This document shows positions 3,241-8,004 of a stretch of DNA of 57,580 bases, piece by piece (the stretch's first letter is position 1; every line of letters starts with the position of its first letter). The stretch is taken from contig JAJEEA010000236.1 of NCBI GenBank assembly GCA_022821235.1, positions 1 to 57,580 of the forward strand. The letters run 5' to 3'. Origin of the DNA: Vicinamibacteria bacterium (GTDB lineage Bacteria; Acidobacteriota; Vicinamibacteria; Vicinamibacterales; UBA8438). Position numbers and translations under genes: made by a program. Below the pieces are notes generated by a model. That model searched no databases. It was not told where the DNA came from and worked only from the letters and a program-made list of their open reading frames with translations.

Positions 3241-4224
3241 TCAGAACACCGCGATCACGTTCAGCGGCGAGCCGGTGCCGCCGGTCACCGGGATCGGCCC
3301 GGCCGCGATGAGGAACTCCCACCGGCCCTCCTCCGCCGCCACCTCGGCCAGCGCCTCGAGGTCCATGTTGTCGAAGATGTTGGTCCCCAGGCCCGCGATG
3401 AGCAGGATGTGCAGCGGCAGCCCGACCCCGTCGACCCTCGACGGCTGCACGTCGGTGGCGGCGTCGCTGCCGAACAGGGCCACGTCCTCGCCGCGGATCC
3501 AGCGGATGACCGAGGCGTGGATGCCGGCCGAGTTGCCCGAGAGCTGCCACGGCCCCATCTCGGCGCGGCGCGCCCAGCGGCCGGTCCGCAGGAAGACGGC
3601 GTCGCCCGGCTGCATGGTCACCCCCGCCTGCTCCAGCCACGCCTCGATGTCCTCGGTGTAGACGGGCGTCCCCGGTTCCAGATAGTCGACCCCCTTCAGG
3701 CGGGGGATGTCGAGGAGCACGCCGCGGGTGACGATGCCGTCCTTCAGGTTGTCGATGCCGAGCTTGACGCAGCCCTCCTCGGCCGAGCTCGTGTCGGCGG
3801 GCAGGCCGTTGTACATCATGCCCTTGTGCAGGAAGTGGCACAGGGCGGCTCTGTGGCTGACGCCGTAGCCGTGGTAGGAGAACTCGATGGTGTCGGACCG
3901 CAGCGTCTCCGACATGGTGTGGTTGAACGCCGAGTCGGGGTTGTCGGGGTGCACGCCGGGCATCGGGTTGTGCGACAGCGACACCGTCCGGCCCCGCGTG
4001 GCGAGCGCGAGGGCCTCCCGCCGCTTCTCCTCGGTGATCAGGTTGGCCGTGCCCAGCTCGTCGTCGGCGCCCCAGCGGCCCCAGTTCTTGACCTCCTCGA
4101 ACAGCGCGTCGAACTCGGCCTCGTCGTGCGGACCCGGCCCGTCCTGGGCCACGGCCGGCGCCGCCGCCAGGGCCGCGAGCATCGTTGCCGCCGCGAACCA
4201 TCCGCCCCTGCTTCTGCTTCGCAT
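3241..4224 (-). CDS. Secreted cyclase-family (kynurenine formamidase-like) protein
   Basis: ATG 4224 with GAGGAG RBS; signal peptide; NWGRWGADDELGTANLI, RGVLLDIP, GDAVFLRTG, GGTGSPLN motifs. Confidence 0.85.
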   Translation of the reverse strand: MRSRSRGGWFAAATMLAALAAAPAVAQDGPGPHDEAEFDALFEEVKNWGRWGADDELGTANLITEEKRREALALATRGRTVSLSHNPMPGVHPDNPDSAFNHTMSETLRSDTIEFSYHGYGVSHRAALCHFLHKGMMYNGLPADTSSAEEGCVKLGIDNLKDGIVTRGVLLDIPRLKGVDYLEPGTPVYTEDIEAWLEQAGVTMQPGDAVFLRTGRWARRAEMGPWQLSGNSAGIHASVIRWIRGEDVALFGSDAATDVQPSRVDGVGLPLHILLIAGLGTNIFDNMDLEALAEVAAEEGRWEFLIAAGPIPVTGGTGSPLNVIAVF

Positions 4225-4492
4225 CTGCTTCGTCTCCTCTCCTCCCCCCGGAACCGTCCACGGCGTGCCACCCGGCCCACCGTCCAACCGCCCGCGGCCC
4301 TCCCGGCCAAGCGAAGGGCGCTGCACCCGCGTTCGCTGCCGGCTCCCGCGGCGCAACCGCGACGCGTCGGCGCGCGAAGCCGGCCCCGGGCGACGGGCGC
4401 GTTGCACCCGCCGCTCCGCCCGCCGGACACGTCCTCTTGCTGCGTCCTTCCCCCCCGGGACGGCACGTCGCGGGGGAGGGGGCACGTTCAGT

Positions 4493-5248
4493 CTATCGCG
4501 GCTTCCTTCCCGCGTCCCGGGCGCCGTCGGCCGCGCGGTCGCACGCGCTGAACAGCGTCTCCTCCCGCGCGACGATCACCGCGTCCTCCCGCGACAGCGC
4601 CGCCAGGGCCCCCGCGAGCACGTCCGGATCGGCCTCGACGGTGCCGGTCCGCGGCCTTGCGAGGAACTCGCGCCAATCGTCCTCGGTGCGGTAATGGAAC
4701 TCCAGCACCGTCGTCAGCTCGGCCCGCGCCGTGAACAGGCCGGCCCGGATCGCCGCGGCGAGCGCCTGCCGGGACGACCGCATGTCCCGTTGCCCGTCGT
4801 CGGTGACGTGCACGACGCCCACGGGCTCGGTGCGGCCGGCCCGGCGGACATGGAAGGGCGTCGGCCGGCCGACGGGCTGCAGGCTGACCAGGCGACCGCG
4901 GAGGCGCAGCCAGCCGGCCACCTTGCGCAGAGCGTCACCGACGCTCTCGGGGGGCAGTCATCACATCGAACGCGAGAAGACGACCAGATCGAAGCTGGCC
5001 GGCGGCAGCGCGAGCTCGAGGACGTCCGCCGCCCGGAAGCGGCAGGTGCCGCTGGTCCCGCCGGCACAGGCCTGTGAGATAGCGGCCTCGTCGGGGTCCA
5101 CGCCCAGCACGGTCGCGCCCCGCCCCGCGAGGCGGCGGGATGTGCGCCCCTCGCCACAGCCGACGTCGAGCACGTCCTTGCCCGCCAGATCCGTGAATCG
5201 CTCGATCAGCTCCAGCTCACGCCCTTGCGGGTCCACCGTTCGCGCCAT
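4493..5248 (-). CDS. Class I SAM-dependent methyltransferase with tandem in-frame UGA-UGA (putative Sec-Sec)
   Basis: ATG 5248 with GGAGG RBS; motif I VLDVGCGEG; FDLVVFSRSM-TGA-TGA-LPPESVGDALRKVAGWLRLRGRLV continues in frame to the stop at 4493; SECIS-like hairpin follows the TGAs. Confidence 0.75.
4929..4947 (-). promoter_or_regulatory. Putative bacterial SECIS element
   Basis: On the coding strand AGAGCGTC-GGT-GACGCTCT: perfect 8-bp stem, G-initiated GGU loop 18 nt after the second UGA. Confidence 0.7.
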
Positions 5249-5474
5249 GTCATCCTCCAACCGAACCGGACCCGGCGCCCGCCCTGGAGAGCCCGTGGCG
5301 AGAGGCCCGAGCATCCAACCGGCGACGCGACCCGCGCCCCGCCGGTGTCGTTGCAGCACGGGTCTGACCGCAGGGTTCTCGGACGTCACCCCACGGCGGG
5401 CCGCGCCCCATCCCGCGCCGCCCGGGGCAGCCGCGCGGCTACAATCGCCCTCTGACCGTGGAGGGAGGACCCAC

Positions 5475-6002
5475 ATGAGAGAGACCTTCGACACCCTATT
5501 GAAACAGTACGAGGATGGCAAGCTGACGCGGCGGCAGGTGCTGGGCGCCTTCGCCGCCATGGCCCTGCCGGCGGGCGCCCGCGCCCAGGCGGGCCGCGTC
5601 CGGGCCCGCACGCTGCACCACGTCAACGTCGGGGTCGCCGACCTCGACCGGTCGGAGGCGTTCTACCGCGACCTGCTCGGGCTGCCGGCCCGGCGCTACA
5701 TCGTCGGCGACGCCTACGCGCTCGACTTCCCCGACGGCGGCCTCATCAGCCTGTGCCCGGTCGAGGGGGGCAACTGCAGCCTGACCGCGGGCAGCGCGGT
5801 CGCGGGCGAGATCGATCACTTCGGAGTCGGGATCGAGAACTTCGACGGCGACCGGGTGGCCAGGGAGCTCGAGGACGCCGGCTTCGAAGACGTGCGGGGC
5901 GGCGGGGGCAGCGTGCTGGTGCCCGACCCGGACGGCCTCGTGGTGCAGCTCTCGGCCGTGACCGAGCGCTTCGAGGGGACCCCGCCCGATCGGGGATGCT
6001 GA
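5475..6002 (+). CDS. VOC/glyoxalase-family protein with Tat-like leader
   Basis: ATG 5475 with GGAGG RBS; LTRRQVL leader; LHHVNVGVADLDRSEAFYRDLLG, IDHFG, DPDG motifs. Confidence 0.85.
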   Translation: MRETFDTLLKQYEDGKLTRRQVLGAFAAMALPAGARAQAGRVRARTLHHVNVGVADLDRSEAFYRDLLGLPARRYIVGDAYALDFPDGGLISLCPVEGGNCSLTAGSAVAGEIDHFGVGIENFDGDRVARELEDAGFEDVRGGGGSVLVPDPDGLVVQLSAVTERFEGTPPDRGC

Positions 6003-6245: not shown

Positions 6246-7892
6246 CTACTGATCGGTCGCCGCCGCCCGGTACGAGGCGTCGAACAGGTCGAGCTTGGTC
6301 TCGCGGATCTTGCTCGCCGCCGCCGTCCCGAAGGTCGCGAACTCGATGACCGGCTCGCCCTCGCGGTCGTACTTCGGCCACAGCGGCAGGCCGTCGCCGT
6401 TGGGGTCGCCGGTCCTGGCGAAGTTCACCCAGTACTGCGACAGTTGCTCGGACAGCTCGTGGTCGCGCGCGTTCCAGCCGACGCCGACGAGCCCGACGTT
6501 GTCGAACGCGTAAGCGAGGTCTCCGGAGTGGTAGGCGCCGCCGCCGCGCAGCCCGCCCGGAAAGTCGAGCTCGGGCCGATCGGGCAGGTAGAGCCGGAAC
6601 ACCGGCGGGGCGTGGCTGAAGAAGTAGAGGTAGACGTCGTTGGCGTCGGCGTGGGCCCGCGCCCACTCGCGCATCTGCCACGTGAAGCTGCGGTCGGCCT
6701 GAATCGCCTGGCCGGCGGTGCGGGTCGATTCGGCGATCTCGCCGGCGTAGGCCTCGAGCAGGGCGTCGGCCCGGTCGCCGTAGCGGTCGCGGACACCGGC
6801 CTCGAACTCGTCCCGCGGCGGCCCGGCCATGCCCGCGTAGAGGGTCGTCCCCTCGTCGGACAGCGACCCGACGATGACCGGCACGTCGTTCTGGTCGCCG
6901 GCCGCGAAGATCGCGCTCGGCAGGTCGGGCAGCACCCAGCCGTCGACCACCACCCCGGTGCCGCGCCCGGCCTCGAGCACCGCCTCTGGCCCGGCCGCCC
7001 GCAGGGCCGCCGCCGCGTCCGCCCCGTCGCCCTCGACCCCGAGCCGGGCCGCGACGGCCAGACCCGCGTCGTGGCCGGAAACCGCGGTCGCCGGCCCGCC
7101 GGTCGTCGCGAGATGCGCGCGCGGGGCGCCGAAGCAGCCGCCCGAGTGGCCGATGGCCTTGTGGAACAGCCCCTTCGCCAACGGCGACGCCTGGAGCACG
7201 CACACCGACCACGAGCCCGCCGACTGGCCGAAGATGGTGACGTTGCCGGGGTCGCCGCCGAACGCGGCGACGTTGTCGCGCACCCACTCGAGGGTCGCGA
7301 CGTGGTCGAGGATGCCGTAGTTGCCCGACGCCTGCTGCTCGGACTCGGCCGTCAGGGCGGGGTGCGCGAGGAAGCCGAAGGGCCCCAGGCGGTAGTTGGC
7401 GGTCACCATGACCACGCCCTTCTTCGCCATCGCGGTGCCGTCGAAGATCTTCGCGCTGCCGGTACCCGAGCTGTGGCCGCCGCCGTGGAACCACACCATC
7501 ACCGGCCGGCGCTCGCCCACCCGCGCCGCCGTCCACAGGTTCAGGGTCAGGCAGTCCTCGCTGCGCGGCAGCTCGCCCCGCGCGTAGGGCGAGTCGTCGG
7601 CGTTGCGGGCCTGCCAGCACGCGGGCCCGAACTCGGCGGCCGCCCGCGTCCCGTCCCAGGGCTCGACCGCGGCCGGCGGCCGCCAGCGCAGGTCGCCCAC
7701 CGGCGGCTGCGCGAAGGGCACGCCCCGGAAAACCGAGACGCCGGCCTCCGCGTCGGCCCACGCCCCTTCGAGCTCGCCCGACGGCGTCAGCACGACCGGC
7801 CTGCTCTCCGACTGGGCGGCCGCGCCCACCGCGCCCGCCGCCACGAAGAGCGCGGCCAGTCCGAGGACCAAGGCGTTCCGCATCGTTCGCAT
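6246..7892 (-). CDS. Type B carboxylesterase (para-nitrobenzyl esterase-like), secreted
   Basis: FRGVPFAQPPVGDLRWRPP, SEDCLTLN, WFHGGG, GQSAG nucleophile, YHSGDL; signal peptide. Confidence 0.92.
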   Translation of the reverse strand: MRTMRNALVLGLAALFVAAGAVGAAAQSESRPVVLTPSGELEGAWADAEAGVSVFRGVPFAQPPVGDLRWRPPAAVEPWDGTRAAAEFGPACWQARNADDSPYARGELPRSEDCLTLNLWTAARVGERRPVMVWFHGGGHSSGTGSAKIFDGTAMAKKGVVMVTANYRLGPFGFLAHPALTAESEQQASGNYGILDHVATLEWVRDNVAAFGGDPGNVTIFGQSAGSWSVCVLQASPLAKGLFHKAIGHSGGCFGAPRAHLATTGGPATAVSGHDAGLAVAARLGVEGDGADAAAALRAAGPEAVLEAGRGTGVVVDGWVLPDLPSAIFAAGDQNDVPVIVGSLSDEGTTLYAGMAGPPRDEFEAGVRDRYGDRADALLEAYAGEIAESTRTAGQAIQADRSFTWQMREWARAHADANDVYLYFFSHAPPVFRLYLPDRPELDFPGGLRGGGAYHSGDLAYAFDNVGLVGVGWNARDHELSEQLSQYWVNFARTGDPNGDGLPLWPKYDREGEPVIEFATFGTAAASKIRETKLDLFDASYRAAATDQ

Positions 7893-8004
7893 CGCAATCT
7901 CTCCCATCCCGGCAAACGCCGCCCTGCGGCGCAGCCGCCCCAGCCAGAATCCCACCGCCCGCGGGCGGCTCATGCCATCGTCCTCCGTCGCCACCACGAG
8001 CGGC

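Follow-up and report, generated by a model that had tools for sequence, protein, structure and literature searches.

Two adjacent in-frame UGA codons and one SECIS-like hairpin in a probable new family of selenoprotein methyltransferases

Insertion of selenocysteine (Sec, U) in bacteria is thought to need a selenocysteine insertion sequence (SECIS) at a tightly fixed distance from each UGA codon, and is usually said to be inefficient. Among the 119 prokaryotic selenoprotein families and subfamilies in Table 1 of a review from 2026, none has an adjacent U-U motif (PMC13188914). The methyltransferases in that table are ArsM (UxxG), MduS (CxxU), UXPK-star (UxxG), two ArsM fusions and an Ada-type protein for which no motif is given, and several bacterial families with vicinal C-U motifs are tied by the review's authors to metal or organometal chemistry (PMC13188914). 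Selenoprotein L (SelL) carries a UxxU motif that forms a diselenide, with one SECIS for two UGAs that lie two codons apart (PMC4989117). The algal protein PDI_e, with a GUGUU motif, has two consecutive Sec residues and was called the first Sec-Sec selenoprotein by its authors (PMC7539508). Here we describe a gene for a predicted methyltransferase in which two adjacent in-frame TGA codons are followed by a single hairpin. It lies at positions 4493-5248 (minus strand) of a 57,580-nucleotide stretch of DNA, hereafter the window, from a Vicinamibacteria bacterium (assembly GCA_022821235.1, contig JAJEEA010000236.1).

Comparative evidence makes it very probable that this gene encodes a genuine selenoprotein methyltransferase with a vicinal Sec96-Sec97 pair. 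Both UGAs are most likely read as Sec, aided by one RNA hairpin, as the sequence-only reading of this DNA had proposed; that proposal gains support from conservation of the pair, Sec/Cys interchange, covariation in the hairpin and the Sec machinery of the genome. The comparisons point to a well-supported new selenoprotein family and to an unusual variant of bacterial Sec recoding in which two UGAs would share one SECIS. The family is large and widespread in soil and sediment metagenomes, and apparently uncatalogued.

Gene prediction breaks the coding region into two minus-strand open reading frame (ORF) fragments, one covering 4961-5626 and ending at 4961, the other covering 4493-4921 with a GTG start at 4921. 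They belong to one frame, from 5248 to 4493, of 251 codons and a TAG stop (4493-4495), in which the TGAs are codons 96 (4961-4963) and 97 (4958-4960) within TCG ATG TGA TGA CTG CCC. The translation starts M-A-R-T and reads FDLVVFSRSM, the two stops and then LPPESVGDALRKVAGWLRLRGRLVSL. A SAM-binding (S-adenosylmethionine) motif I, VLDVGCGEGR, occupies residues 26-35 (5144-5173, minus strand), and its G30, G32 and G34 are invariant in comparison with distant methyltransferases. Residues 26-121, a range that spans both stops, match Pfam Methyltransf_25 (65 bits; gathering cut-off 27) and Methyltransf_11 (59.1 bits; cut-off 21.2), and the product is accordingly predicted to be a class I SAM-dependent methyltransferase. 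The single 251-residue frame, the codon context and the continuation of the Rossmann fold past the stops had all been claimed from the sequence alone, and every detail was found again.

The TGA pair is conserved well beyond the window. A scan of 61 related genomes, with stops read through and matches accepted at E <= 1e-20, gave 22 matches, all with two TGAs, and no match in the remaining 39 genomes. The motif [ST]-R-S-[ML]-TGA-TGA-L-P stands at one column in all 22 orthologues, two of which have identities of 49-51%. Scanning one genome per species added five orthologues (40-52% identity) from other Acidobacteria and from three metagenome-assembled genomes (MAGs), one of Polarisedimenticolaceae, one of Gemmatimonadota and one unclassified. 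TGA-TGA is present in every one of the five, and each codon is TGA in 27 of 27 genome orthologues. A sample of 401 genomes from the phylum yielded 14 with a match at E <= 1e-15. In nine the match to the family extends beyond the methyltransferase core, every one with two TGAs; in the other five it covers the core alone (about residues 9-133) and is free of stops. Six of the nine form a second subfamily, marked by the motif [FY][SA]W[SV][LF]-UU-[LVI]-[PA]-x-[ER]-G-M-V-[HD]-A-L.

Public annotations conceal this pattern. The 16 best matches to the read-through protein (75-99% identity, one of them the window's own) are all C-terminal fragments of 142-144 residues, which indicates that the gene is broken by gene callers at one and the same point throughout. 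Such splitting could be taken as a sign of decay, with two adjacent nonsense mutations in a degenerating methyltransferase gene and a hairpin that arose by chance; it would also fit a hairpin that, taken alone, is not significant in its 76-nt context. Decay is difficult to reconcile with the same two TGAs in every orthologue examined, across several phyla-level lineages and at identities of 40 to 96%, so these are not assembly copies of one sequence. Conservation also extends to the frame and to the residues that separate the TGAs from the next possible start, and the hairpin covaries. Among 20 sequences of the genus (190 pairs, of which 189 and 188 were usable for the two segments), the median ratio of non-synonymous to synonymous substitution rates (dN/dS) was 0.32 for codons 1-95 and 0.32 for codons 98-240, and both halves of the gene are under equal purifying selection, the downstream half included. 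We reject the pseudogene, which is contradicted by the conservation of the TGA pair and to which we attach a negligible probability; the sequence-only reading had judged two nonsense mutations plus a chance hairpin the less parsimonious account, and conservation, selection and covariation bear it out.

Full-length relatives reveal what replaces the TGAs. A profile search of 1.84 billion representative proteins recovered full-length proteins of 230-265 residues alongside two kinds of fragment, about 24 N-terminal ones (95-104 residues, ending at query position 95) and about 17 C-terminal ones. Cys-Cys occupies both columns in 15 of 18 aligned full-length homologues, in the motif F-S-W-S-L-C-C; the other three have A-C (P0134), W-W (P0159) and H-E. 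We also scanned metagenome contigs with the Cys-Cys alignment and found 454 relatives, and the following counts refer to the best 80 of these 454, with proportions that are shaped by the search pattern and the ranking and are not population estimates. The codon pair is UU at 46 loci, CU at 24, UC at seven, CC at two and UW at one (L147:730-1371, TGA-TGG), and at least one TGA is present at 78 loci. The first codon is accordingly TGY (Cys) in the 24 CU and two CC loci, and the second in the seven UC and two CC loci, with TGG in one. TGA-TGA, TGA-Cys, Cys-TGA and Cys-Cys, the four forms to be looked for if both codons specify Sec, thus all occur in nature. TGG is one transition away from TGA, and the W-W, A-C and U-W members may be relics of lost Sec decoding or variants of altered function; the UW locus retains the hairpin. 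One CU locus (L169:1632-2384) has an extra in-frame TAG at codon 25 and may be a broken copy or an assembly error.

The distribution of these forms was compared with a maximum-likelihood tree, built quickly from 124 rows after the Sec/Cys columns had been masked; some of its branches are long, and support is weak for 37 of the 118 inner ones. Parsimony on this tree needs at least 14 U/C changes at the first position (shuffled mean 34) and at least 12 at the second (shuffled mean 23), and the well-supported branches alone force at least seven (UU), four (CU), three (CC) and four (UC) changes. Sec and Cys thus appear to have been interchanged repeatedly and independently at both columns, a classic signature of selenoprotein sites. 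The sequence-only reading had held that residues other than Cys in homologues would count against Sec. Such residues occur only in paralogous or very distant methyltransferases (H-W, D-I and H-V) and in the three odd members with WW, AC and UW.

A perfect 8-bp stem (AGAGCGUC/GACGCUCU) with a GGU loop begins 10 nt after the second TGA, just where the sequence-only reading had placed it. On the minus strand the spacer covers 4948-4957 (10 nt from the second TGA and 13 nt from the first) and the SECIS-like hairpin 4929-4947, with the 5' arm AGAGCGTC at 4947-4940, the loop (GGT in DNA) at 4939-4937 and the 3' arm GACGCTCT at 4936-4929. The 10-nt spacer has the same length in all 27 sequences of alignment A5, and the rare codon GGT that forms the loop is retained in 25 of 27 genome sequences. 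In a first covariation alignment of 27 genome sequences (22 distinct), 99.4% of cells were paired and two of eight pairs were compensatory. After the second subfamily was added (27 distinct sequences, 216 cells), 98.6% of cells were paired, as against 32-52% with the 3' partner slid by one to three columns. Four of the eight pairs were then compensatory (A-U/G-C; G-C/A-U with G-U intermediates; G-C/A-U; C-G/G-C), and none of 500 shuffles reached the covariation score. Some of the compensating changes alter the protein, with Ser/Gly/Asn on one arm and Ala/Val on the other, so RNA pairing is kept at the cost of residue identity. Synonymous variability in codons 101-107 is 0.093, compared with a gene mean of 0.184. 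A scan of 4800-5050 against Rfam gave no family match, the sole match being mir-341 at E 2.7, a chance value.

The metagenome loci extend this picture. A stem of at least 6 bp lies 6-12 nt past the second codon in all 71 distinct TGA-bearing downstream sequences listed, starting 8-12 nt past it in every one but L137, and the canonical arms keep one shared register. The loop is GGU, or GUN in the second subfamily, and usually GUU, GUC or GUG in the metagenome loci. Neither of the two Cys-Cys metagenome loci has a stem, and the peptide differs there too. The register is the same in CU forms, where the hairpin is 10 nt from the UGA, and in UC forms, where it is 13 nt away, which implies that both distances work singly in nature. 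This shared register is the best available evidence that one element could serve both codons of the UU forms, an arrangement first suggested for the window from its sequence alone.

The genome (6.6 Mb, 552 contigs, 92% complete), whose nearest relatives with a name are Vicinamibacterales MAGs of the Acidobacteriota, has the machinery that such decoding would need. All four components that were sought are present: tRNA-Sec (selC, anticodon tca), selA (531.6 bits; cut-off 267.9), selB (343.5 bits; cut-off 242.25) and selD (291.8 bits; cut-off 125). It also encodes a formate dehydrogenase alpha subunit, FdhA (L111, G000:C378:18769-21744; 1338.7 bits), with exactly one in-frame TGA, whose SECIS consists of an 8-bp stem with the loop GUC, set off from the codon by an 11-nt spacer. 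FdhA serves as an internal positive control for SECIS shape in this organism, and the 13- and 10-nt distances of the methyltransferase hairpin bracket its 11 nt. Nine of nine other UU-bearing genomes tested have selA above cut-off. Acidobacteriota very commonly have the Sec trait: selA is above cut-off in 161 of 201 genomes sampled from the phylum (about 80%; the sample includes the three unpublished genomes G106, G205 and G083).

These results also bear on the idea that the hairpin stimulates reading of the UGAs by a standard tRNA, such as that for Trp, rather than Sec insertion. Structures that follow a stop codon can promote its read-through, TGG stands at the columns in two relatives (WW P0159 and UW L147), and distant paralogues have H-W. 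Cys is nevertheless the usual alternative, with 24 CU, seven UC and two CC loci and 15 CC proteins set against two relatives with Trp. In addition, selA is found in all gene-bearing genomes tested, the hairpin matches the FdhA SECIS in stem length, loop size and distance, and two consecutive near-cognate read-throughs would be expected to be very inefficient. With Cys rather than Trp as the usual substitute, we reject this explanation as highly improbable.

The same holds, at a slightly lower probability still, for a split gene in which TGA-TGA is a tandem stop, the downstream part is re-initiated and the two polypeptides assemble. Tandem stops terminate efficiently, the window has a GTG 36 nt farther downstream (4921), and gene callers report N-terminal fragments of about 98 residues and C-terminal fragments throughout the databases. 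Yet no start codon is shared beyond the stops: L039 and L040 have GTT or GTC in place of the GTG, and the codon directly following the TGAs varies among CTG, TTG, ATG, GTG, ATC and CAC. Cys replaces either or both stops in 33 of the best 80 loci and in 15 of the 18 full-length proteins, giving an uninterrupted chain, and the hairpin is built and spaced like the SECIS of FdhA in this genome. The cut would also fall within the Rossmann-like domain, between strand 4 and its helix. Lacking a conserved start and faced with uninterrupted Cys-bearing forms, re-initiation was rejected.

AlphaFold2, given an alignment of 22 sequences, predicts a continuous Rossmann-like fold of alternating strands and helices with a beta-rich C-terminal part, at a mean predicted local distance difference test (pLDDT) score of 89.1 over the whole frame and a predicted template modelling score (pTM) of 0.86. 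In this model residues 96-97 lie in a loop between strand 4 (residues 86-92) and a helix (100-113). Foldseek matched the model to 3bkw, 6uv6 and phosphoethanolamine methyltransferases at E 2e-12. The nearest solved structures (TM about 0.55) are 3bkw, AtmM, phosphoethanolamine N-methyltransferases and Rv0560c, all generic class I small-molecule methyltransferases, and no solved close relative was present among the Protein Data Bank (PDB) neighbours. In the Protein Atlas, the natural Cys-Cys homologue P0127 matched generic methyltransferase clusters and no others. A profile alignment with plant phosphoethanolamine methyltransferases puts the pair in the S-R-D-x-I-L-H segment after strand 4, which we take to supply catalytic residues in those enzymes.

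If the Sec96-Sec97 reading is right, a complex of SelB, GTP and Sec-tRNA would bind the hairpin loop, and the first UGA would be decoded with the hairpin 13 nt away. The ribosome would then translocate by 3 nt with the hairpin unmelted, now at 10 nt, and a second SelB complex could decode the second UGA. The two selenols would sit in the motif IV loop after strand 4, adjoining the SAM pocket where class I methyltransferases hold the acceptor. There the pair may chelate or activate an acceptor that is soft and thiophilic, for instance As(III), Se or Te. The acceptor may instead be a reactive species of sulfur or selenium, and the pair may pass through a diselenide state as it cycles. Pairs of vicinal thiols or selenols typically act as ligands of soft metalloids and metals, as in ArsD, ArsI and the C-terminus of MerA. 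We favour methylation of a thiophilic acceptor because such pairs typically bind soft metalloids and because CU-motif selenoproteins are linked to metal and organometal chemistry, and the enzyme may be a new type of As, Se or Te methylase.

A redox switch or covalent nucleophilic catalysis may be about as likely. On that possible and still tentative reading the selenoprotein is real and the pair acts as a redox switch, or as a nucleophile like the motif IV Cys of pyrimidine-C5 methyltransferases, instead of forming a metalloid site. The position of the pair in the motif IV loop after strand 4 would suit this role, and no ars, mer or selenium-metabolism genes are conserved beside the gene among 119 flanking ORFs at 36 loci. 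Most known selenoproteins are redox enzymes (PMC13188914). The fold neighbours argue in the other direction, being small-molecule and not nucleic-acid C5 methyltransferases.

Several observations weigh against the interpretation as a dual-Sec methyltransferase. Folded as a single sequence, the hairpin has a z-score of +0.48 in a 76-nt context, with 131 of 200 shuffles as good; in a 45-nt context the values are -2.10 and 6 of 200. The hairpin alone is not clearly beyond chance in such G+C-rich DNA, and its weight comes from cross-genome comparison. The absence of the hairpin from Cys-Cys forms is known from two loci only. Trp or Ala at the pair columns in three relatives (WW P0159, AC P0134 and UW L147) indicates that the pair is not strictly indispensable and leaves some room for read-through by Trp. 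Co-occurrence with selA is weak and nearly uninformative evidence, because so much of the phylum has selA anyway. Metatranscriptome contigs from four runs of four studies bridge the TGA pair (X2 record 2, X3 record 5, X4 record 12 and X5 record 15), with 0.04-0.19 of sampled words matched in the RNA runs; these contigs belong to relatives at a likeness of at least 85%, come from libraries that can hold DNA, and say nothing on transcription, strand or level, and the parts left uncovered carry no meaning. No partner gene is conserved among the 119 flanking ORFs of the 36 loci, so gene neighbourhoods lend no direct support to the proposed substrate. Incorporation of selenium is itself something we infer from comparing sequences, and we know of no demonstration of efficient back-to-back SelB decoding in bacteria.

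Taking both sides together, we lean, at slightly better than even, towards the fullest form of the dual-Sec proposal, that this would be the first natural bacterial case of two consecutive SelB-dependent Sec insertions from one SECIS, and that the acceptor site of an uncatalogued methyltransferase family would hold the resulting vicinal pair as a diselenol or diselenide. A conserved and widespread gene with two UGAs and one hairpin would imply that a single element can support two successive rounds of SelB action, with one hairpin register serving UGAs at both 10 nt and 13 nt. The natural series of UU, CU, UC and CC forms is a ready-made system for studying spacing tolerance and processivity. 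A Sec-Sec dipeptide beside the SAM pocket would be an unusual chemical device and may hint that soils harbour a route of metalloid or chalcogen methylation that has gone unrecognised. The family is invisible to most surveys because public annotations split or truncate the gene, into fragments of 142 and about 98 residues, and it deserves a curated model.

Upstream of the gene, a Shine-Dalgarno-like GGAGG (5254-5258, minus strand) lies 5 nt before the ATG at 5248-5246 and probably serves as its ribosome-binding site. The in-frame tetrapeptide LEDD, which spans GGAGG and abuts the M of MARTVDP, occurs in 10 of 20 same-genus rows, the window included; the other rows have LEAD (five), LEHD, VEDD, WRMT, SEDV or SEAG. 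GGAGG thus appears to be retained in about half of the same-genus rows and not throughout. The gene is flanked by a secreted putative cyclase (PF04199; 3244-4230, minus strand), a VOC/glyoxalase protein with a twin-arginine-like leader (5496-5999, plus strand) and a type B carboxylesterase (6249-7997, minus strand). VOC/glyoxalase genes recur near the family at five loci (the window, L182, L193, L196 and L064), and the cyclase and carboxylesterase flank the gene in the window and L060 only. Between 2965 and 6002, both strands hold many long spurious ORFs that overlie real genes and have no family support, such as 3887-5077 (plus strand, 396 residues) and 4731-6002 (plus strand, 423 residues), as is typical of very G+C-rich DNA. 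Several metatranscriptome contigs end or start at 4801-4917 (X2 end 4801 and start 4887; X3 end 4916 and start 4887; X4 start 4917), probably where strain variation splits the assemblies.

We compared the family with curated models and described selenoproteins. In NCBIfam release 20.0 no model reached its cut-off for the window protein or for its UU, CU, UC and CC relatives. The best curated family was CpaM (NF043040; 54.7 bits for the window protein and 45-78 for relatives, cut-off 180), from which the family also differs in that no corrinoid-protein family is found among the 119 flanking ORFs of the 36 loci. Scores were lower for MduS (NF045649; 21.2 bits, relatives 26-37, cut-off 380), the methyltransferase/UXPK-star model (NF047649; 21.5 bits, cut-off 460) and the ArsM/AhpD selenoprotein (NF041537; 19.6 bits, cut-off 510), an overall range, with relatives, of about 20-55 bits against cut-offs of 380-510. 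The sequence-only reading had pointed to methyltransferases with a UU pair in selenoprotein surveys. This could not be confirmed: the methyltransferase selenoproteins listed in the review's Table 1 have no adjacent Sec pair, and term searches in the main texts of the GOS survey, the 2016 comparative study, the BSepDB paper and the deep-Sep paper turned up no methyltransferase with adjacent Sec. Literature searches for adjacent or tandem UGA or Sec in bacteria found no case, several of these searches being swamped by unrelated matches.

The likeness to MduS (with two Sec), UXPK-star, ArsM/AhpD and ArsM is confined to weak domain-level matches, a class I SAM methyltransferase domain combined with Sec. 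In these selenoproteins Sec residues are non-adjacent and belong to other motifs (PMC13188914), and domain architecture and length differ too. SelL and the UxxU and CU families (Prx-like, mercuric-reductase-like, SaoC, SaoL, HgcA and MbdU) share with this family two chalcogen residues placed close together; as described in those sources, adjacent Sec residues occur in none of them, and this methyltransferase family is not among them. Algal PDI_e does have consecutive Sec, in a eukaryotic protein disulfide isomerase of the thioredoxin fold whose SECIS lies in the 3' untranslated region and acts at a distance; bacteria need the SECIS immediately after the codon. The closest parallel in build is FdhA of the same genome, which likewise has an in-frame UGA, a close hairpin with an 8-bp stem and a 3-nt apical loop containing G and U. 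The methyltransferase differs from it in placing two adjacent UGAs, at 13 and 10 nt, before one hairpin, and in not being an oxidoreductase.

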